Shown: positions 51,903-62,900 of the stretch, piece after piece
Layout of the letters: each line of letters begins with the position of its first letter
How positions within the stretch are numbered: position 1 is the first letter of the stretch
From: Streptosporangiales bacterium
GTDB taxonomy: Bacteria; Actinomycetota; Actinomycetes; Streptosporangiales; WHST01
DNA length: 64,000 nt
Assembly: GCA_009379825.1 (NCBI GenBank)
Contig: WHTA01000006.1
Location: forward strand, 65,858-129,857
Reading direction: 5' to 3'
Made by a program: the position numbers and the translations under genes
Notes under the pieces: model-generated
The model's input: only the letters and a program-made list of their open reading frames with translations
Databases searched by the model: none
Told to the model about the DNA's origin: nothing

Positions 51903-52172
51903 TCAGGCGGCCAGGGCGGTTGGCCCGGCGTCGGCCGGGCTGGACGCGGCCCGGGCGATCCGCGCCCGGGACAGCCGCACCAGCCGGCGGTGGCTCAGCG
52001 CGAGCAGGTCGGCGAGGTCGAGACCGAGCGCGTCGGCGGTCGCCGCGAGGACCTCGGAGGACGCCTCCTTGCGGCCGCGCTCGACCTCGGAGAGGTACGG
52101 CATGGAGATGCCGGCGGCGTCGGCGACCTCCTGCAGCGTCAGGTCGCGGTCAAGGCGCTCGCCGCGCAGCAC
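51903..52172 (-). CDS. XRE-family helix-turn-helix transcriptional regulator
   Basis: LTLQEVADAAGISMPYLSEVERGRKEASSEVLAATADALGL. GTG 52172 is the first standard start in frame. The frame is open for 27 more codons upstream, without an ATG, GTG or TTG. Confidence 0.75.
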   Translation of the reverse strand: MLRGERLDRDLTLQEVADAAGISMPYLSEVERGRKEASSEVLAATADALGLDLADLLALSHRRLVRLSRARIARAASSPADAGPTALAA

Positions 52173-52460: not shown

Positions 52461-54608
52461 ATGTGGGTACGGCTGGTCGTCGGTCTCGGCCTGACAGCGG
52501 TGGCCCTCGTGTTCGCCGGTCGGCGGCTGTGGTGGCTGTTCCAGGTCATCCGCACCGGACAGCCTGCGCCTGAGCGTACGCAGGGGATGCGAGAGCGGAT
52601 CGCCACGCAGTTCACCGAGGTGCTCGGCCAGCGCAAGCTGCTGAAGTGGTCGGTGCCCGGCCTGGCGCACGCGTTCACGTTCTGGGCCTTCCTGCTGCTG
52701 CTGACCGTCTACATCGAGGCGTACGGGGCGCTGTTCGACCCGCACTTCACCATCCCGCTGATCGGCCACTGGCCGGTGCTCGGGTTCCTGCAGGACACCA
52801 TCGCGGTGCTGTGCCTGCTCTCGCTCGTGGTGTTCGCGGTCATCCGGGTGCAGAACTCGCCGCAGAAGCTCGACCGGCAGTCCAGGTTCAAGGGGTCGCA
52901 CACCGGCGGGGCGTGGCTGATCCTGTTCATGATCTTCAACGTGCTGTGGACGCTGTTCGTACTGCGTGGCTCGGCGATCGTCGCGGGCGAGTTCCCTTAC
53001 GAGTCCGGCGCGTGGATGTCCGAGCTGGTGGGCATAGCGCTGGCGCCGATCGGGCAGCCGGCCGCCGAGGTGCTGACCACGGTGATGATCCTGGCGCACC
53101 TGGCCGTGATGCTGTCGTTCCTGCTGATCGTGCTGCACAGCAAGCACATGCACATCTTCCTGGCACCGCTGAACGTGCTCACCTCCAGGCGGCCGAACGC
53201 GCTCGGCCCGCTCGAGCCGATGATGAGCAACGGCAAGCCGCTGGACTTCGAGGAGGCCGACCCCGACGTCGACGTCTTCGGCCGCGGCAAGATCGAGGAC
53301 TTCACCTGGAAGGGCCTGCTCGACTTCTCCACCTGCACCGAGTGCGGCAGGTGCCAGTCGCAGTGCCCGGCGTGGAACACCGAGAAGCCGCTGTCGCCGA
53401 AGATGCTGATCACCGACCTCCGCGACCACATGTTCGCGAAGGCGCCGTACCTGCTCACGCCGGAGGACCAGCGCGACTCGCTGCCGGACGCGCTCAAGGC
53501 GGAGGCGGAGCGACCGCTGGTCGGTGGCGCGGACGTGAACGGCGTGATCGACCCGGACGTGCTCTGGTCGTGCACCAACTGCGGTGCGTGCGTCGAGCAG
53601 TGCCCGGTCGACATCGAGCACATCGACCACATCGCAGACATGCGCCGCTACCAGGTGCTCATCGAGTCGAGCTTCCCGTCCGAGGCCGGCACGATGCTGA
53701 AGAACCTGGAGAACAAGGGCAACCCGTGGGGCATGAACGCATCCTCGCGGCTGGACTGGACCGAGGGCCTGCCGTTCGAGGTGCGGGTCGTCGAGGACTC
53801 CATCCCCGACGACGTGGAGTACCTGTTCTGGGTCGGCTGCGCGGGCGCGCTGGAGGACCGGGCGAGGAAGACCACCCGTGCGGTCGCCGAGCTGCTGCAT
53901 ACGGCGGGCGTGGAGTTCGCCGTGCTGGGGCCGATGGAGTCGTGCACCGGTGACCCGGCCAGGCGGCTGGGCAACGAGTTCGTCTACCAAATGCTGGCGC
54001 AGCAGAACGTCGAGACGCTCAACGAGATCGGCGCGAAGAAGATCGTCGCGACCTGCCCACACTGCTTCAACACCATCGCGCGGGAGTACCCGCAGCTGGG
54101 CGGCAACTACGAGACCATCCACCACACCCAGCTGCTGGCCAGGCTCGTGGAGGACGGCCGGTTGAAGCCGGTCACCGCAGTCGAGGAGAAGGTCACTTAC
54201 CACGACCCCTGCTTCCTCGGCCGGCACAACAAGGTCTACACCCCGCCGCGGGAGCTCCTCGCGAACGTCCCGGGACTGAAGTCCGAGGAGATGCACCGGT
54301 GCAAGGAGCGCGGCTTCTGCTGCGGCGCCGGCGGCGCACGGATGTGGATGGAAGAGTCCATCGGCAAGCGCATCAACACCGAACGGGTGGACGAAGCGCT
54401 CGCCCTCGACCCCGACACGGTGTCGACCGCGTGCCCGTACTGCCTGGTCATGCTCGGCGACGCGATCAAGGCCAAGCAGGCCGACGGGGAAGCCGCCGAC
54501 ACCCTCGAGGTCGTCGACGTCTCGCACCTGCTGCTGCGTTCGCTGCAGGAACCGGGCAACGGTGCCACGGAGGAGACCCCGGAGCCGGCCCCGACCAGCA
54601 CCGACTGA
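52461..54608 (+). CDS. membrane-anchored (Fe-S)-binding reductase (HdrD/GlpC-like: N-terminal multi-TM domain, two 4Fe-4S motifs, two CCG domains)
   Basis: CTECGRCQSQCP and CTNCGACVEQCP ferredoxin motifs. CCG-type motifs CPHCFNT and FCCGAGG. About six N-terminal TM segments. Confidence 0.85.
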   Translation: MWVRLVVGLGLTAVALVFAGRRLWWLFQVIRTGQPAPERTQGMRERIATQFTEVLGQRKLLKWSVPGLAHAFTFWAFLLLLTVYIEAYGALFDPHFTIPLIGHWPVLGFLQDTIAVLCLLSLVVFAVIRVQNSPQKLDRQSRFKGSHTGGAWLILFMIFNVLWTLFVLRGSAIVAGEFPYESGAWMSELVGIALAPIGQPAAEVLTTVMILAHLAVMLSFLLIVLHSKHMHIFLAPLNVLTSRRPNALGPLEPMMSNGKPLDFEEADPDVDVFGRGKIEDFTWKGLLDFSTCTECGRCQSQCPAWNTEKPLSPKMLITDLRDHMFAKAPYLLTPEDQRDSLPDALKAEAERPLVGGADVNGVIDPDVLWSCTNCGACVEQCPVDIEHIDHIADMRRYQVLIESSFPSEAGTMLKNLENKGNPWGMNASSRLDWTEGLPFEVRVVEDSIPDDVEYLFWVGCAGALEDRARKTTRAVAELLHTAGVEFAVLGPMESCTGDPARRLGNEFVYQMLAQQNVETLNEIGAKKIVATCPHCFNTIAREYPQLGGNYETIHHTQLLARLVEDGRLKPVTAVEEKVTYHDPCFLGRHNKVYTPPRELLANVPGLKSEEMHRCKERGFCCGAGGARMWMEESIGKRINTERVDEALALDPDTVSTACPYCLVMLGDAIKAKQADGEAADTLEVVDVSHLLLRSLQEPGNGATEETPEPAPTSTD

Positions 54609-54677
54609 GCCTGCCGGAACCGGCCGATCCGACCTGGCGTCGCAAGCCGCATGGCGAGTAGCGGCATCAAGAGGACC

Positions 54678-55697
54678 ATGGGGCGCGACGAGCTGCTGTC
54701 CGCAGTACGCGCGCTCGGCCTGCCGGAAGGGAAGTACGCGGTGTTCGGCCGCGGCCCGCTGGTCGTCCGGGGGCTGAGGACGAGCAACCACATCACCATC
54801 GCGGTCACCGTCGACGTGTTCAGGCGGCTGATCGCGGCGGACGGGTGGGACGTCCACCGCGCCGACGACGGCCGCGAGGTGTTGCGCTGCGGCAGCTTCG
54901 AGGTCGTCGACCGGATCGAGCTCCCCGGCTACCAGCGCACCGGCAAGGCGCTCGTCACCGCGTCCGAACGGGTCGACGGCGTGCCCGTGGTCCGCCTGGC
55001 CGAGCTGCAGAAGCTGCTCGAAGCCCGCAAGCACCGCGACGACGAGACGGACCTCAACCTGGTCCGCCGCGCACTCCGCGACGCCAGCCCGCGCCCGCAG
55101 GAACCGGGTCTGCAGCGGTCGCCGGAGGAGGGCACCTGGGATGGCACGGGGCTGGCGTTCCTCGTCCGGGCCCTCACCAAGCCGGCCGCCACGTTCGCGA
55201 CAGGCCACGGCGTGCGGTTCTGGCCGACCGCCTACCTGGTCTCCGTGGCGAGCGTGGCAGTGAACGGTCTCGGCGCCGCCATCCACGGCAACGGCGACGC
55301 CCCCGGGTCCCCACTACTCCCGCTCGTGGGCGCACCGCTCATCGCAGCGCTTGGACTGCTGGTCTCCCTCCTGATCTCCCGGGTCGCGCTCGGCGTCGCC
55401 CGCGGGGGCGGCGGGGACGGTGACTACGTCGCGGCAGCCAGCCAGGCGGCGATCGTCACGGCCGTGTGGGACCTGCCGGCCAGCCTGGTACAGCTGGCGG
55501 TCGGGCCGGGCGCGGCCGCGGCGCTCAAGTTCGTCTCCCTCGTTGCGTACGTGTATCTCGCCTACCTATACGCCGGCGCGTACCGGGTGTCGGTCGCCCG
55601 CGGCCTCTTCGGCGCGGTGGTCGGCACGCTCGCCCTGCTCGCCGGCGTGATCTCCGTCGCCGTCGTCGTCGCCCTGCTGGTGATGGCGGGTACCTGA
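54678..55697 (+). CDS. fusion protein: degenerate nucleotidyltransferase-like N-domain plus a Yip1-like polytopic membrane C-domain (paralog A)
   Basis: It aligns along its whole length with the next gene. The NTase motif positions read FGRGPLVVRGLRTSNHITIAV, with no Ser and no DxD. The C-terminal half begins LTKPAATFA and has about five hydrophobic segments. ATG 54678 is preceded by AAGAGGA. Confidence 0.6.
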   Translation: MGRDELLSAVRALGLPEGKYAVFGRGPLVVRGLRTSNHITIAVTVDVFRRLIAADGWDVHRADDGREVLRCGSFEVVDRIELPGYQRTGKALVTASERVDGVPVVRLAELQKLLEARKHRDDETDLNLVRRALRDASPRPQEPGLQRSPEEGTWDGTGLAFLVRALTKPAATFATGHGVRFWPTAYLVSVASVAVNGLGAAIHGNGDAPGSPLLPLVGAPLIAALGLLVSLLISRVALGVARGGGGDGDYVAAASQAAIVTAVWDLPASLVQLAVGPGAAAALKFVSLVAYVYLAYLYAGAYRVSVARGLFGAVVGTLALLAGVISVAVVVALLVMAGT

Positions 55698-55722
55698 CGC
55701 CGCTGGCGCCTATGCTCGTCGC

Positions 55723-56763
55723 GTGGGCATCGACCGCACGCAGCTGCTCGACGTCGTACGTGCGCTCGACCTGCCCGCCGGTCAGTACGTGGTCTTCGGC
55801 AGCGGGCCGCTGGTCGTCCGCGGCCTGCGGGAGGGCCGCGACGTCGACCTGGTCGTCACCCCGGAGCTCTACGAGCGGCTGCGCGACACCGGCTGGACGG
55901 TGGTGGCGAAGGACGACGGCGGCGAGCTGCTGCAACACGGCGACGTCGAAGCGATGACCCGGCTGGAGTTCCCCGGCTACCACCGCGACCCGCGTACGCT
56001 CATCGCCGGCGCGGAACACATCGACGGCGTGCCGTTCACGCCGCTGGCCGAGCTGCGTACGTTCAAGACGGCGCTCGGGCGTCCCAAGGACCAGGTCGAC
56101 CTCGACCTGATCGACGCGGCGCTCACCCGGCAGAACGGTGCGGCGTCCGGCGAGGAGCGGGCCGAGTGGGCACGTCAGCTGCTGGCCGACCGTGCGGCGC
56201 CGGGCCGGCCCGAGCCGCCGCCTTGGCCGGGCAGCGGCTGGACCTTCCTCGCCGGCACGGTCACCCGGCCGAGTGCGACGTTCGCCGCCGCGGCGGGCAC
56301 GACGTTCTGGGGCACCGCCCTCGTGGTGTTGTTCGCCAGCGCCGTCGTCCGGAGTGCCCGGGTGCTCGTGCACGGCGGCCCGGTGAGCGAGCTGGTGCTC
56401 GGCCCGGTGGTCGCGGTCGCCGGGTTGGTGCTTGCGGCCATCGTCGGCGGCATCGCGCACGCCACGGCGCGGCCGGCCGGCGACGACCCGGCGCCGGTCG
56501 CGAGCCAGACCGGCGTCGTGCTCGGCCTGGCCAGCCTCCCGGCGACCGTCACCCATCTGCTCACCGGCACCGCCGCGGCGGCCGGCCTGGCGGCGCTGGC
56601 CACCTGCCCGGTTGCACTGTGCCTGCTCGCGCTGCTGTACGCGCGGTCGCTCGACGTACCGTACCGCCGCGGACTGCTTGGTGCCGTCGCCGGCGGCGTG
56701 ACGGTCGTGGCCGTGCTCATCCTGCTCGGTTTCGTGGTGGTGCTGGTCACCTCGCTGGCGTAG
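55723..56763 (+). CDS. fusion protein: minimal Pol-beta-type nucleotidyltransferase-like N-domain plus a Yip1-like polytopic membrane C-domain (paralog B)
   Basis: FGSGPLVVRGLREGRDVDLVV fits the hG[GS]-x(9-13)-DxD NTase signature. GRPKDQVDLDLI follows later. The C-terminal half begins VTRPSATFA and has about five hydrophobic segments. GTG start. Confidence 0.6.
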   Translation: MGIDRTQLLDVVRALDLPAGQYVVFGSGPLVVRGLREGRDVDLVVTPELYERLRDTGWTVVAKDDGGELLQHGDVEAMTRLEFPGYHRDPRTLIAGAEHIDGVPFTPLAELRTFKTALGRPKDQVDLDLIDAALTRQNGAASGEERAEWARQLLADRAAPGRPEPPPWPGSGWTFLAGTVTRPSATFAAAAGTTFWGTALVVLFASAVVRSARVLVHGGPVSELVLGPVVAVAGLVLAAIVGGIAHATARPAGDDPAPVASQTGVVLGLASLPATVTHLLTGTAAAAGLAALATCPVALCLLALLYARSLDVPYRRGLLGAVAGGVTVVAVLILLGFVVVLVTSLA

Positions 56764-56792
56764 CCAGGCACCGCACGAAGTACGCTCGAAGG

Positions 56793-57182
56793 GTGCGCAA
56801 GCTGCTGACGCCCAAATGGTTGGCCTTGCATGCCCTGGCGGTCGTGCTGGTCATCGCCTTCCTCGCGTTCGCGTACTGGCAGCTGCAGCGCGGGGCGGCG
56901 GGCAACGCCCGCAGCCTCGGCTACGCGTTCCAGTGGCCGCTGTTCGCGCTGTTCGTCGTCTACATGTGGGTGCGGATGGTCCGCGAGGAGCTGCACCCGA
57001 AGCCGGACACCGAGCCGAAGGCGCCGCGGGTGGCCACCGCCGTCCCCGCGGCACGGCCGGCCGCCGTCACCACGGCCGAAGAGGACGACGACGAAGACGA
57101 CCCGGAGCTCGATGCCCAGCTGGAGGAGTACAACCAGTGGCTGGCGCAGCTGAATCGGCAAGCGGAACGGACGGCGAAGTGA
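56793..57182 (+). CDS. small two-TM membrane protein with an acidic C-terminal tail
   Basis: WLALHALAVVLVIAFLAFAYW and WPLFALFVVYMWV segments, then EEDDDEDDPELD. GTG 56793 is the estimated start. The stop overlaps the next gene's start (GTGA). Confidence 0.55.
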   Translation: MRKLLTPKWLALHALAVVLVIAFLAFAYWQLQRGAAGNARSLGYAFQWPLFALFVVYMWVRMVREELHPKPDTEPKAPRVATAVPAARPAAVTTAEEDDDEDDPELDAQLEEYNQWLAQLNRQAERTAK

Positions 57183-57553
57183 CCGACGTCGCGAACGACA
57201 CCGGGGCCGAGCCTGCCGCGGAACCGGCGGGCGAGCTGCCCAAGCCGGTGCGGGGGGCGCTCACCAGGTACCGGGTGATGGCGTACGTCACGGGCGTGCT
57301 GCTGATCCTGCTGGTGTTCGTCGCGATGCCGTTGAAGTACCTCGGCGGCATCGAGTGGCCGACGGTGGTGATCGGCCAGGTGCACGGCTACCTGTACATG
57401 ATCTACCTGGTCGCGGCGGTCGACCTGGCCAGGCGGGTGCGGTTCAGCTTCCAGCGGATGGTCGCCATGTTCCTCGCCGGCGTCGTGCCGACCGTCGCGT
57501 TCTTCTGTGAACGCCGCGTCACCCGCTGGGCGCGGGAACGGTACGCCGGCTGA
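57179..57553 (+). CDS. DUF3817 family membrane protein
   Basis: LTRYRVMAYVTGVLLILLVFVAMPLKY...GQVHGYLYMIYL matches my recollection of the DUF3817 pattern. Confidence 0.8.
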   Translation: MTDVANDTGAEPAAEPAGELPKPVRGALTRYRVMAYVTGVLLILLVFVAMPLKYLGGIEWPTVVIGQVHGYLYMIYLVAAVDLARRVRFSFQRMVAMFLAGVVPTVAFFCERRVTRWARERYAG

Positions 57554-58157: not shown

Positions 58158-59693
58158 TCACCGCTGGACGTACGCCATCGGCTTTCGCTTGCAGCCCTTC
58201 TCTTCGCCGTCCTTGACGAGGCAGGTCCTGGTGGTCAAGGTGTTCCGCTTCCACGACCAGTGCCCGCGACGGGTCTCGCACTGTTCCCCGTCGGTGCTGG
58301 TCGCCCAGGTCACCACGTCGCCGACACCGTCGATGGCCTCCGTACGGACCGTCCAGCCGTCGACCTTGTCGTCACACGCACGCACCGTCACACCGTTGTC
58401 CACGCCGACGCGGTACTGCACGTGCCCGGCCCGCTTCTCCTGGCCGAGGTAGATCCGCTCCAGCATGCCGTGCTTGCGGCAGTCCTTGCGTTCGCCGGTG
58501 TGCTTGTTCTTCAAGCAGGTCTTGAGCGCCATGTGTCTGAAGTTCGCGTCCTCGATGGGCTCGTACTTCTGGCACATGCCCCGGTAACTGCCGCCATCGG
58601 ACCCCTTGATGAAGTTGTCGCCCTGGTACGGGACGTACCCGCGGGCCTTGACCCGCCAGTCCCCACCCCGGTTGTCGCACACGATGAGCCTGGAGCTGGA
58701 CTTGCCGTAGACGATGAGATGTGCCCAGCCGGCCTCACCCTTGGCGCCGGCGCGTACCGAGCCAGAGATCTCGATGCCGCCCTTGACGTGCATCCGCATG
58801 ATCACCGGCTTGTGGTCGGACGCCCTCGTCTTGCACGCGACCTTGCCGCCGTCGGTGACGATGGCCGGGGACGCGAAGACGTAGTCGATGCGCTTCACCT
58901 TCTTCTCGCCCTCTTCCGGGCGGCACTTCTCACCCTTCGGCACGCTCGTGGTCACGCCGGCGACGCTGTTCTTCACCATCGTCCAGGTGTCGATGAGGCC
59001 ACGGTTGGCGATCACCGACTTCATCGGGTCGTCCGGCCGCAGGTTGAAGTCGCCCATCAGCACTATCGGTCGGTTCAGGTAGTCGAGCATCTCCGAGCGC
59101 AGGATGTACTTGACCTCGCGGTCGCGCAGCCGCTCCCAGTAGTCCGCAGGCACGTCCTTCTCGTCCTGACACTTCTGCGGCGTCGGTTTCGGCGCCTGGG
59201 TGTGCGTGTTGATGACGTGGATCCGCGTGCCACCGACCTCGATCCCTGCCTTGACGATGCTTCCCGTCTTCCCGCACTTGTCGCGCGGGAGGGTGTCGGT
59301 CTCCGGGTTGTGCAGCTCGCGCTTGGACGCCAGCAGCTTGCCCATCTGGCCAGGTTTGGTGTTGTAGAAGTACTTGTAGCCGAGCTCGGGCAGCTCGCGC
59401 TTCATCCACTTGATCTCGTCCGGGTGTCGCGGATGGTCGTCGGGCCAGTCGGCACCGTGATCGCGGTGGATCTCCTGCAGGCCGACGATGGTCGGCGAGT
59501 GCTTGGCGATCACGTTCTTCACCGCGTCCAGGTTGACAGCGTCGTCGTCCGGGCCCTGGGCGAAGTGGATGTTCCAGGTCATCGCCGTGAACGAGGTGCT
59601 CGCCGCCCTCTCCGCGGGGGCGGTCTCCGCCGCCAGAGCACCCCCCGGGGTGAGCGTGGCCGCCGTGAGCACCAACAACAGCGCCTTCAACAA
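58158..59693 (-). CDS. secreted endonuclease/exonuclease/phosphatase (EEP, DNase I-like fold) family protein with a duplicated Cys-containing C-terminal module
   Basis: Signal peptide MLKALLLVLTAATLTPGGALA. EEP catalytic motifs TWNIH, GLQEI, INTH, GDFN, IDYVF and SDHKPV. TTG start. G+C is markedly lower than in neighbouring genes. Confidence 0.8.
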   Translation of the reverse strand: MLKALLLVLTAATLTPGGALAAETAPAERAASTSFTAMTWNIHFAQGPDDDAVNLDAVKNVIAKHSPTIVGLQEIHRDHGADWPDDHPRHPDEIKWMKRELPELGYKYFYNTKPGQMGKLLASKRELHNPETDTLPRDKCGKTGSIVKAGIEVGGTRIHVINTHTQAPKPTPQKCQDEKDVPADYWERLRDREVKYILRSEMLDYLNRPIVLMGDFNLRPDDPMKSVIANRGLIDTWTMVKNSVAGVTTSVPKGEKCRPEEGEKKVKRIDYVFASPAIVTDGGKVACKTRASDHKPVIMRMHVKGGIEISGSVRAGAKGEAGWAHLIVYGKSSSRLIVCDNRGGDWRVKARGYVPYQGDNFIKGSDGGSYRGMCQKYEPIEDANFRHMALKTCLKNKHTGERKDCRKHGMLERIYLGQEKRAGHVQYRVGVDNGVTVRACDDKVDGWTVRTEAIDGVGDVVTWATSTDGEQCETRRGHWSWKRNTLTTRTCLVKDGEEKGCKRKPMAYVQR

Positions 59694-59913
59694 TCTCGGT
59701 CATCCCCTTCGTCGGTAACACAGCGCAACGAGGGCCTGAAACGGTTCACGTTTCCCCGGCCCGTCAGCCTGCTCGGTCGTACCTTTTTACGGTGCGGCCG
59801 AGTTGTTCGGTACCCGTCAGCAGCACCGAACGTGGCCGGCTGCGGACAACCGAGGGCGACAACCGGGGGCGGCGGCGGTGCGTCCCCGACAGGTCGTCCA
59901 GTCCGATGGTGGG

Positions 59914-62900
59914 ATGGGTATGCCTCGTCCGGAACGCCCTGTCGAAGGTGCCGACGGCGTGGCCGAGCGGTTCGCCGTCGAGCTGCGCGCGCTGCGCCAG
60001 GACGCCGGCCTGCCCTACCGGAATCTCTCCGCCCGCACCGGCTACTCTCCGTCGACGCTGTCCGCCGCCGCGGCGGGACACCGGCTGCCCATCCTGGACG
60101 TGGCGGTCGCCTACGCCACCGCCTGCGGCGGTGACGAGCAGGAGTGGACGGCCAAGTGGCAGGCGGCCGCGCTGTCCGCCGCCACCGAACGGCTCGACGA
60201 CGCGTCGGCCACCGCCGACCGCGCGCCCTACCGCGGGCTGACCAGCTTCACGACCGCGGACGCCGACCTGTACTTCGGCCGGGAGGACCTCGTCGCCGAG
60301 CTGGTGACGCGGGCGACCAGCCGTCCGGTGACCGTGGTGCTCGGCGCGTCCGGTGTCGGCAAGTCGTCGCTGCTTGCCGCGGGCGTGGTGCCCGCGCTGC
60401 CGCGGGACGTGCACGCCGTCGTCACCACCCCGTGCGGCCGGCTGCGGGAGAGGTTGGCCGAGGAGCTCACCGGTCACAGCACGTGCGTCCTCGTCGTCGA
60501 CCAGCTCGAGGAGGTCTTCACGCACTACCCGGCCGAGGAGCGGGCCGCGCTCGTCGAAGGCCTGCTGGAGCTCGCGGACCGGTCGGACGGCCGGGTGCGG
60601 CTGCTGCTGAGCGTGCGCGCCGACTTCTACGGCCGGTGCGCGGAACACCCGCGGCTGGCCGCCGCACTGCGCAACGACCAGGTGCTCGTCGCGCCGATGA
60701 CCGACGAGGAGCTGCAGGCCGCGGTCGCCGGGCCGGCAACGGCGGTGGGCCTGTCGGTGGAACGGGCGCTGCTCGCCGCCGTCGTCAGGGACGCCCGCGG
60801 CCAGGCCGGCTGCCGCTGCTCTCGCACGCAATGCTGGAGACCTGGCGCCGACGCAGGGGTGACGTGCTCACGCTGGCCGGCTTCACCGCGGCCGGCGGGC
60901 TCGGTGGTGCGGTGGTGCAGACGGCCGAGGCCGCGTACGCCGAGCTCGACCCGGCCGCGCAGCGGCTGACCGCGGAGCTGCTGCTCCGCCTGGTCACCGT
61001 CGACGAGGACACCACGGCGACGGGGCGCCGGGCGGAGCTGACCGAGCTGCTCGACCTGGACCCGGTGGCACAGACCGTCGTCGACCGGCTCGCCGAGGCC
61101 CGGCTGGTCACCGTCGACGAGGACACCGTGCAACTGGCGCACGAGTCGCTGGTCACCGCGTGGCCGCGGTTGCGCGCGTTGATCGACGACGACCGCGAGG
61201 CGTTGCGCAACCACCGCAAGATCACCGAGGCGGCACGGATCTGGGTGGAGACCGGGCGCGACGGCTCCACGCTCGCCGCCGGCAGCCGTCTTGCGCTGAT
61301 GCAGGCACAGGTCGAGTCCGCACCGGCCACGCTACGGCTCACCACGGTCGAGCGGGAGTTCCTCGACCAGAGCGCGGCCGAGGAACGGCGGGTGCAGGCG
61401 GCGGCCGTCCGGCGGGCGAAGGGGCTGCGCGCGCTGACCGCGGCGGCCGTGGTCTGTGCTCTCGTCGCGGCCGTGCTTGCCGGGGTCGCCGGCCGGGCCC
61501 GCACCGACGCGCTGGCCGCGCGCGACACGGCGCTCTCGCAGCAGATGGCGCTGACTGCCGACGAGCTGCGCCAGACCGACCCCACCCTGGCCGGACAGCT
61601 GGCCGTCGCCGGCTACGGCATAGCGAAGACCAGGGATGCGCGGTCCTCGCTGCTGGAGTCGGCGACCGGGCCGACGGCGGCGAGGTACCTCGGCGGCCCA
61701 GGGCCGACGGCCATGGCCGCGGCCACCGACGGCGGCCTGGTCGCGGCCAGCGACGCGACCGACGGTTCGGTCCGGCTGTTGACCGAGGCGGACGGCAGGC
61801 TGGTGCGTACGGGCACCATCGCCGCCGGCGCACCAGGAGCGCTCGTCTACGCGCTGGCGCTGTCGCCCGACGACCGGCTGCTCGCCGTAGGTGACACGAC
61901 GGCGACGATCGCGTTGTGGGACGTCACGAACCCGCGGTCACCGCGGCGGTTGGCCACCCTGCGCGGCGGTCCACAACACGCGATCGAGCGGCTCGCGTTC
62001 GCGCCGAGCGGGGACGAGCTCGCCGCCGCCGGCGGCAACGGCGTCTTCCGCTGGGACACCGCGGAACCGACGCAACCGCGGCGGCTCGCCCGGCTGCCGG
62101 CCACCGCGACCACCCGCACAGTCAGCTACGACGCCGGCGGCGACCGGCTGGCGTTCGGCACCGACAGCGGCGAGGTGCAGCTGTGGGACGTGGCGGACGA
62201 CGAGCGCCGCACGGCCGTGCTTGCGGCCGGCGACCGCCCGGTGCCAGCGCTGGCGTTCGCCCCCGACGGCGGCACGCTCGTCACCGGCTCGCACGACCGC
62301 GCCGTGCGGGTGTACGACGTCACGCCACCACAGCGGCCGCGGCTGCGTACCGTCCTCGACGACCTGTTCGAGCTCTACGTCACCACGGTTGCGGTGAGCC
62401 CGGACGGGCAGTACCTGGCGGCAGGCAGCTCCGACTCCACCATGCGCGTGATCGACACGTCCACCTGGACGAGCGTGCAGACGCTGCCGCATCCGGACGT
62501 GGTCACCTGGGCCACGTTCACCGACGACGGACAGACCCTCGCGTCCGTGGCCACCGACGGGGCCGTGCGGCTGTGGGACCTGGCGACTGCGCTACCGCAG
62601 CACACCGAGGCACCGATCCTCGATCTCCCGTTCAGCGCCGACGGGCACCGGCTGGCGGCCTTCTCCGCCGGCCAGGCGACCGTGTGGGACACCACCCAAG
62701 CCATGCACCCGACACCGCTGGCCGAGAGCGTCACCGCACCCGACGATGCAGCGGCCTTCAGCGGTGCCGGCGACATCGCCGCCGACGGGGAGTTGGTTGC
62801 CGCCGGCAGCACACAGGGCGACGTGCACCTGTACGACCTCCGCGACCCGTTGGAGCCACGCCATGCCGCCACGCTCGGCGGCTCCGCCGCGGAGGTGTTC

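Follow-up and report, generated by a model that had tools for sequence, protein, structure and literature searches.

LnuA is a lincosamide adenylyltransferase and ANT(2″)-Ia an aminoglycoside nucleotidylyltransferase, and both act as small-molecule O-nucleotidyltransferases. The nucleotidyltransferase (NTase) fold is defined by an hG[GS] motif together with acidic residues, and an NTase-fold core resembling LnuA and ANT(2″)-Ia is also found in membrane-anchored proteins of the fukutin/FKRP/LicD type (PMC6965139). Among the membrane proteins of the Yip1 family, YknW serves the YknXYZ ABC efflux pump of Bacillus as an accessory subunit and contributes to dimerisation in a proposed assembly model (PMC4887032). 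Here we describe two tandem genes, A and B, in a 64-kb stretch of a Streptosporangiales contig (WHTA01000006.1; this whole stretch is called the window), whose predicted products join an NTase-like N-terminal domain (N-domain) to a Yip1-like C-terminal membrane domain (C-domain). This combination is undescribed and unannotated, and both of its domains come from known superfamilies. An earlier, sequence-only reading of the same DNA was aware of no function for such a fusion, and domain database scans and the literature likewise gave none; literature searches on NTase-Yip1 fusions, DUF6036 and DUF3817 returned no functional information. The account developed below, in which B would be a membrane-tethered NTase-fold transferase and A a non-catalytic, dispensable relative, is offered as a tentative one that falls, as a whole, a little short of probable.

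Architecture of the tandem fusion proteins

Gene A (54678-55697, plus strand) encodes 339 aa and gene B (55723-56763, plus strand) encodes 346 aa, and their products are identical to GEV07_05180 and GEV07_05185, respectively, of a Streptosporangiales metagenome-assembled genome (MAG). The sequence-only reading had described two paralogs of ~340 aa lying 25 bp apart on the same strand. Both open reading frames (ORFs) are present at that spacing, and their alignment (36% identity over 291 aa, E 4e-43, BLASTP) marks them as full-length paralogs with a similarity far above chance. A tblastn search of the window found no third copy. A begins with an ATG that has AAGAGGA ahead of it, and a second in-frame ATG lies at 54651; B begins with a GTG, in agreement with the M(A/G)IDR N-terminus of B homologs. 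In this genome of 70% GC, the GC content at third codon positions (GC3) is 0.92 for A, 0.93 for B and 0.95 for the A N-domain alone, and it stays at 0.92-0.95 across the two halves of A; the codon-position GC of both genes matches that of real genes of the host genome.

The N-domain of B (residues 1-135; 55723-56127, plus strand) is modelled as a minimal NTase fold. Its AlphaFold2 model, built with an alignment of stand-alone relatives, has a pLDDT of 97 and a pTM of 0.90, and its helices (H) and strands (E) follow each other in the order H5-14, E22-25, H28-32, E41-45, H47-55, E59-62 and onward. When this model was compared with the PDB by Foldseek, LnuA (4fo1, E 3.3e-4) was the best match and ANT(2″)-Ia (E 3e-3) came next. 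These two enzymes make up the top five matches, with probabilities of 0.99-1.00, those below them are mainly poly(A) polymerases and CCA-adding enzymes, and all leading matches are NTases. Neither A nor B has a significant match in Pfam, NCBIfam, PADLOC or the PDB sequences, Pfam giving none even at E ≤ 10, and neither reaches the gathering thresholds of DUF6036 and NTP_transf_2. The A2 and A3 profiles found no relative at E < 0.3 among the PDB sequences, on which ground membership of A and B in the ANT(2″)/Lnu family at the sequence level was rejected.

A2, a profile built from the N-domains and used to search for stand-alone relatives, retrieves about 90 proteins of ~135 aa from archaea, Patescibacteria, Amycolatopsis, Streptomyces and others, and precomputed Pfam annotation is blank for all 94 matches of this profile. 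A genome scan added more than 50 further stand-alone NTases across very diverse taxa. Among 88 stand-alone relatives, weak Pfam matches fall mainly in the NTase clan, where the best reaches E 3e-5: DUF6036 is the most frequent signal (13 proteins), followed by NTP_transf_5 (8), NTP_transf_2 (6) and Polbeta (3). The model, the structural matches and these weak family signals uphold the NTase-like fold suspected at the outset, with LnuA and ANT(2″)-Ia as the closest structures, and the A2 matches place the N-domain in a widespread, unannotated stand-alone family. The stand-alone proteins themselves (P0019-P0107 and L006-L059 in our collection) carry G-S, D-x-D and K...GR.KD motifs and occur in Patescibacteria, DPANN archaea, Bdellovibrionales, Acidimicrobiia and actinomycetes; being without a Pfam family or a solved structure, they are a candidate for a new family definition.

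The motifs quoted in the sequence-only reading are exact: FGSGPLVVRGLREGRDVDLVV in B (residues 25-45; 55795-55857, plus strand) and, at the aligned positions, FGRGPLVVRGLRTSNHITIAV in A (residues 23-43; 54744-54806, plus strand). The hG[GS] motif after the first core strand is present in B as F25-G26-S27 and reads F23-G24-R25 in A, and the [DE]h[DE]h motif on the second core strand is present in B as D40-V-D42-L and reads H-I-T-I in A (H38-I-T40). In 86 stand-alone relatives, D40, D42 and K115 are conserved in 100%, A97 in 99%, K122 in 98%, G26 in 97% and S27 in 93%, and K115, R120 and K122 lie within 84-100% across this family. B, which thus has its catalytic signature intact in a full-length fusion, keeps 26 of the 27 positions that are conserved in at least 75% of the family, the exception being W81 (76%), and every position conserved in at least 90%. 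Candidates for a third carboxylate in B are E76 (on a strand, D/E in 77%), E98 (72%) and D101 (87%). In contrast to B, A carries the substitutions S27R, D40H, D42T, A97S, F105V, K115L, R120H and K122D (B numbering), so the loss of the Ser and both Asp that had been noticed earlier extends to K115, R120 and K122. A keeps the Gly, Pro and hydrophobic core positions of the fold, and non-conservative changes hit six of the eight polar conserved positions but only one of the 19 structural ones (Fisher p = 6e-4). Judged from these substitutions, nucleotidyl transfer by A is very unlikely, and its N-domain probably still folds.

A Pro/Gly/Arg-rich linker connects the N-domain of B to its C-domain (56224-56760, plus strand), for which the AlphaFold2 model (pLDDT 90) shows an amphipathic RP(S/A)ATF helix, RPSATF in B, followed by five helices of 22-32 residues, in agreement with hydropathy. 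The "about five hydrophobic segments" of the sequence-only reading correspond to these five long predicted transmembrane (TM) helices, and its (T/L)(K/R)P(A/S)ATFA box is present in both A and B and is common to true Yip1 proteins as RP.ATF. The C-domain of A (55137-55694, plus strand) is likewise predicted to be a five-TM Yip1-like domain and retains the family-invariant W, P, ASQ, LY and RG..G. Foldseek found no structural analogue of the C-domain in the PDB, and at the gathering threshold of Pfam Yip1 (PF04893, 28.6 bits) neither A nor B gives a match; two of 17 members of the fusion family match it at E ~0.005. When the C-domain profile was run exhaustively with HMMER against 1.84 billion representative proteins, it matched no more than 16 of them, which are further fusions (P0111, P0112 and P0114), C-domain-only proteins of ~190 aa and Streptomyces Yip1 proteins. 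The Streptomyces proteins (P0118, P0119 and P0122; E 6e-6 to 2e-4) are annotated as "Yip1 family protein" and score 44 bits against the Pfam Yip1 threshold of 28.6. When the C-domain alignment was compared with Pfam-validated Yip1 proteins by hhalign, a probability of 92.5% was obtained (E 5e-7, 147 columns). These profile matches and the hhalign result indicate that the C-domain is a divergent Yip1 relative, though not a Pfam-level member, and with this qualification the Yip1-type membrane half proposed earlier stands. No signal peptide is seen, and the Arg-rich linker and the TM4-TM5 loop are compatible with an N-in topology; since nucleoside triphosphate (NTP) is cytoplasmic as well, the N-domain would face the cytoplasm.

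Origin and constraint of the degenerate copy A

Among 5.8 billion clusters, the B-type fusion has 16 full-length homologs, all from Streptosporangiales MAGs or soil assemblies, and A has no homolog other than itself. In total, the NTase-Yip1-like fusion comprises about 20 proteins from soil Streptosporangiales and Nocardioidaceae-type metagenome genomes. The B-type gene is single-copy in eight of 10 loci, A being absent there, and A stands beside B only in the window and in a sister organism represented by a 1.5-kb contig (L069), which carries a B ortholog 87% identical to B and an A-like ORF upstream of it. The conservation of the pair in related genomes, which the sequence-only reading had proposed to survey, is therefore limited to the window and one close relative.

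Between the window and the sister contig, the whole B gene has a nonsynonymous divergence (dN) of 0.070 and a synonymous divergence (dS) of 0.27 (dN/dS 0.26), and its NTase domain, with a dN of 0.024, a dS of 0.21 and a dN/dS of 0.11, is under strong purifying selection. The two A sequences share 54% aa identity over 80 residues, and these 80 alignable codons give a dN of 0.39, a dS of 0.58 and a dN/dS of ~0.66; the dN of A is about 5 times that of B. The A-like ORF of the sister contig (L069:3-326) lacks ~30 residues covering TM4 and the family-invariant LY..RG motif, a deletion that could be either real decay or an assembly artefact of the 1.5-kb contig, whereas the window A keeps all invariant membrane-domain residues. 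The GC3 of this ORF is 0.83 as against 0.92 in the window A.

A second, independent lineage with a dead NTase-like domain (P0111, P0112, P0114 and P0128, one of them from a Nocardioidaceae MAG) has the same fusion architecture and an N-domain that is more degenerate, in which S27 is replaced by D/E, D40 by Q/T/W/R, K115 by L/V and K122 by D/Q/E, and GRPKD is lost. Dead-type fusions are found single-copy, with no active partner nearby, in five metagenomic loci (L064-L068). Thus, a dead domain does not by itself imply an enzyme/pseudo-enzyme pair.

A has diverged to different extents in its two domains. Its N-domain is 45% identical to those of the B clade, which share 65-73% among themselves, and its C-domain is 38% identical to that of B, compared with 36-40% between B and its own orthologs. 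In a neighbour-joining tree of C-domains (1000 bootstraps), a B clade that excludes A is recovered in 97% of replicates, a grouping of A with B and P0002 in 1%, and a grouping of A with the dead clade in 0%; the N-domain tree agrees weakly with this placement of A. A recent tandem duplication of B was rejected as the origin of A on the first two of these values, and membership of A in the Nocardioidaceae-type dead clade on the third, despite the shared F105V, K115L, K122D and ASQAAIV. Taken together, the substitutions, the C-domain tree, the rates and the deletion in the sister copy indicate that A is an older, catalytically dead paralog, kept or acquired only in this shallow lineage and under relaxed constraint.

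Two accounts of the present state of A compete with its being a dispensable accessory. According to the first, A is a decaying old duplicate on its way to a pseudogene and has no present function. The loss of six of the eight polar conserved residues speaks for it, as do the identity of 54% over 80 residues where B shows 87% between the same two genomes, the dN/dS of ~0.66, the internal deletion in the sister copy and the absence of A from all other sampled relatives and from the 5.8 billion clusters. However, the 339-codon ORF is intact, with GC3 of 0.92-0.95 in both halves and a good Shine-Dalgarno sequence ahead of it, all invariant membrane-domain residues are retained in the window copy, and the dN/dS is below 1. 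Moreover, the A lineage apparently predates the radiation of the B clade, and an ORF under no selection would have had to remain uninterrupted for all that time. We consider simple decay unlikely, if well worth keeping in mind.

According to the second, A and B form an obligate enzyme/pseudo-enzyme heterodimer through their NTase and/or Yip1-like domains, in which A regulates or scaffolds B. The 25-bp spacing of two intact genes with coding-type GC3, the presence of the pair in the sister organism, and the retention in A of the hydrophobic core of the NTase and of all invariant membrane-domain residues are in line with such a complex, as are the dimerisation role of YknW in its assembly model (PMC4887032) and the age of the A lineage, whose open ORF argues for some retained function. 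Nevertheless, B evidently works without A in the eight of 10 loci where it is single-copy, the sister A lacks TM4 and LY..RG, A evolves at about 5 times the dN of B with a dN/dS of ~0.66, and the dead clade of Nocardioidaceae type lacks any active partner close by; an obligate heterodimer thus seems quite unlikely. Of the enzyme/pseudo-enzyme pair put forward in the sequence-only reading, an intact B and a dead A, both membrane-anchored by prediction, remain, while a conserved pair with an indispensable A does not. In the account that we prefer, A, which shares the architecture of B and would be unable to catalyse, is not a partner that B requires, and any role left to it would be that of an optional, non-catalytic accessory.

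Genomic neighbourhoods of the fusions and their relatives

In the window, B is followed by a gene for a 129-aa protein with two TM segments, here called mini-SURF1-like (56793-57182, plus strand), and by a gene for a DUF3817 membrane protein (57179-57553, plus strand; Pfam PF12823 E 2.7e-27, TIGR03954), whose start overlaps the preceding stop. The same order, a two-TM gene (~125-137 aa) always next after the B-type fusion at a gap of 12-43 bp, a DUF3817 gene overlapping it or nearly so, and a convergent dcd, is seen in all nine loci with a visible downstream flank. Identity of the two-TM protein across eight loci is 60-69%, as against ~38% for the membrane domain of the fusion. Because this adjacency is confined to a single clade, it may reflect inherited synteny and not functional coupling. 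As to the two-TM protein itself, all eight orthologs (apart from the window, L001:7079-7492, L002:6290-6697, L060:5668-6063, L062:3281-3664, L063:1866-2270, L070:2263-2640 and L071:1250-1627) match NCBIfam SURF1_Mycobac weakly, the best at E 6.7e-9 and far under the cutoff. Only the TM segments at either end (WQLQRG and GYAFQWP) are matched, so that the protein resembles a SURF1 without its central domain, and the acidic C-terminal tail has a conserved DDPELDA.L.EYN.WL.

On the upstream side, the neighbour of the pair in the window is a gene for a 724-aa membrane-anchored 4Fe-4S/CCG protein. The pair therefore does sit between an Fe-S membrane protein and two small membrane-protein genes with a start/stop overlap, as had been described, but an Fe-S/CCG gene is upstream in just three of the nine informative loci (the window, L001 and L071); its place is taken by a LacI gene in L002 and L060/L061, a luciferase-like gene in L062 and an AAA_33 gene in L070. 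With the upstream gene so variable, the Fe-S reductase was rejected as part of the unit, and the co-directional block 52461-57553 does not hold together as one. Of the linkages looked for, that to DUF3817 is constant wherever the flank is visible and that to the reductase is not, and the proposal that pair and Fe-S block form an uncharacterised system fails both on this point and on the absence of A from eight of 10 loci.

Transporter genes recur beside other members of the family, in two independent associations. First, two half-transporter genes (ABC_membrane + ABC_tran) lie directly downstream of the dead-type fusion, on the same strand, in all five dead-type loci (L064:1139-5999, L065:5674-8364, L066:8001-12669, L067:8001-12802 and L068:7035-9971), which suggests that a dead NTase-like domain on a Yip1-like anchor can be a stable form alone, associated with an exporter. 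Second, a stand-alone NTase gene lies 13 bp downstream of an MFS_1 transporter gene in five loci (L035:6746-8381, L045, L048, L054 and L055), which span three phyla and come from Acidimicrobiia, Acidobacteria and an alphaproteobacterium. No ABC transporter genes are encoded beside the B-type loci or the window pair. The idea that stand-alone NTases are split fusions was rejected, since no Yip1-like ORF was found in 53 stand-alone loci.

Some further features of these loci and of the window were recorded. An S9 peptidase gene lies upstream of the dead-type fusion, and in four of the five dead-type loci the two are separated by an EACC1-like gene and a divergent gene with a caspase domain. Five other stand-alone loci have a NUDIX hydrolase gene adjoining that of the NTase, while several loci of Patescibacteria and Bdellovibrionales have PolX and SecA genes near it. 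In the window, a small gene for an XRE-type helix-turn-helix (HTH) protein of 89 aa (51903-52172, minus strand; Pfam HTH_3 E 2e-11) sits between dnaK and the Fe-S/CCG reductase gene and is divergent from the latter. Farther downstream, a 511-aa protein (58158-59693, minus strand) has a signal-peptide-like N-terminus, an endonuclease/exonuclease/phosphatase domain (Pfam E 7e-20) and a Cys-rich C-terminal region of ~200 residues that has no Pfam match, its local GC of 0.64-0.66 being below that of the surroundings. The protein encoded at 59803-60969 (plus strand) fuses an XRE-type HTH to an nSTAND1 NTPase domain (Pfam E 3e-55), a make-up that recalls STAND NTPase immunity or regulatory proteins.

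Proposed function and comparison with known systems

In the account that we favour, the ~135-aa N-domain of B would be a minimal Pol-beta-type NTase, most likely cytoplasmic. Its G26-S27, D40/D42 and the cluster formed by K115, R120 and K122 would bind NTP-Mg2+, and a nucleotidyl group, or a related one linked through phosphoryl, would pass to a hydroxyl of a substrate located on the inner side of the membrane. A small molecule would be the most likely acceptor, as it is for LnuA and ANT(2″) and as the repeated occurrence of transporter genes beside members of the family suggests. The five-TM Yip1-like domain would hold the enzyme at the membrane and probably link it, as an adaptor, with other membrane proteins or with a substrate being transported, YknW being a precedent for a Yip1-family protein that works with a transporter. 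The identity and architecture of the proteins we regard as highly probable. The analysis itself shows the paralogy, the NTase fold, the homology to Yip1, the residues that A has lost, the rarity of the fusion, the pattern of synteny and the rates of evolution. Topology, chemistry, the small-molecule class of the substrate and the adaptor role of the Yip1-like domain are inferred, and the proposed chemistry and substrate class in particular are doubtful.

Several observations weigh against this account. The likeness to LnuA and ANT(2″) is at the level of the fold only (TM-score 0.43-0.55 and 15-18% identity in the Foldseek structural alignment), and the similar core of FKRP transfers ribitol-phosphate, so the fold does not fix the chemistry. 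No single residue among E76, E98 and D101 is assigned as the third catalytic carboxylate. MFS adjacency is seen in just five of the 53 stand-alone loci, the MFS and ABC links belong to other branches than that of B, and no transporter gene adjoins the pair in the window. Finally, the rate estimate for A comes from 80 alignable codons on a single 1.5-kb contig.

It is worth weighing whether B has another chemistry or target, be it protein AMPylation/NMPylation of the MNT type or the attachment of a phospho-alcohol, supplied by a CDP-activated donor, to a lipid or a polymer of the envelope, as in LicD, fukutin and FKRP, possibly together with the mini-SURF1-like and DUF3817 proteins. The closest Pfam signal among the relatives is DUF6036, a minimal NTase family of uncharacterised role, FKRP with its LnuA/ANT(2″)-like core is a ribitol-phosphate transferase (PMC6965139), and the two small membrane-protein genes are always adjacent at gaps of 12-43 bp. 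However, FKRP and LicD structures are absent from the top 50 Foldseek matches, the adjacency is limited to one clade and may be inherited synteny, and the 60-69% identity of the two-TM protein against ~38% for the membrane domain of the fusion suggests that the two are under independent constraints. We think it rather improbable that B works in either of these ways.

A more speculative possibility, which we rate as a long shot, is that the fusions and their relatives are transporter-coupled devices in which a small molecule, be it an antibiotic, a toxin or a metabolite, is tagged by the NTase at the membrane on its way into or out of the cell and the Yip1-like domain docks to a transporter or channel; the dead versions, namely A and the Nocardioidaceae-type clade, would then be substrate-binding adaptors and the MFS-linked stand-alone NTases the unfused form. 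A toxin-antitoxin or anti-phage module of the HEPN-MNT or AbiE-like kind with a membrane effector is strongly disfavoured, because, although minimal NTases are found in HEPN-MNT and AbiE-type systems and the K..GR.KD..D..L helix presumably recalls an AbiEii-type NTase motif, there is no PADLOC match, PF08843 (AbiEii) is not among the weak Pfam matches of the relatives, the neighbours are membrane proteins, dcd and an Fe-S protein with no HEPN or AbiEi-like gene adjacent, and the chromosomal synteny beside dcd is stable.

Should B indeed be a nucleotidyltransferase tethered to the membrane, it would be the first case in bacteria of an enzyme borne on a Yip1-type domain, and it would offer a handle on two little-understood groups, the bacterial Yip1-family membrane proteins and the large unannotated family of ~135-aa minimal NTases. 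Since the nearest solved structures are those of antibiotic-inactivating enzymes, the stand-alone family may be a reservoir of small-molecule-modifying, resistance-like activities that have gone unrecognised. Together, the active and dead versions provide a natural experiment on the conversion of a catalytic domain into a non-catalytic one. These points are of limited practical importance, as the fusion is very rare and known from metagenome-assembled genomes only.

When B is set beside the known systems, each shares a part of its features. LnuA (4fo1) and ANT(2″)-Ia (4wqk/5cfu) are, like the N-domain of B, small single-domain NTase folds with hG[GS] and DxD, but they differ in being soluble, 160-180 aa long and devoid of a membrane domain; they are 15-18% identical to it and give no profile match. 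DUF6036, NTP_transf_5 and NTP_transf_2 are matched weakly by 13, 8 and 6 of the 88 stand-alone relatives, respectively, whereas A and B themselves are unmatched. Proteins of the fukutin/FKRP/LicD type differ from B in having a single-pass anchor, extra domains and a lumenal or extracellular site of action, and they are not among the top Foldseek matches. The Yip1 family (PF04893), including the Streptomyces proteins and Bacillus YknW, shares with the fusions the five TM segments after an amphipathic RP.ATF helix and a cytosolic N-terminal region, which in the fusions is a predicted one; in the fusions, however, this region is an NTase fold and not a low-complexity tail, and A and B fall below the Pfam threshold. 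The linkage to ABC transporter genes that would mark a YknW-type accessory subunit is seen for the dead-type fusions of the five metagenomic loci, unlike the window pair and the B-type loci.

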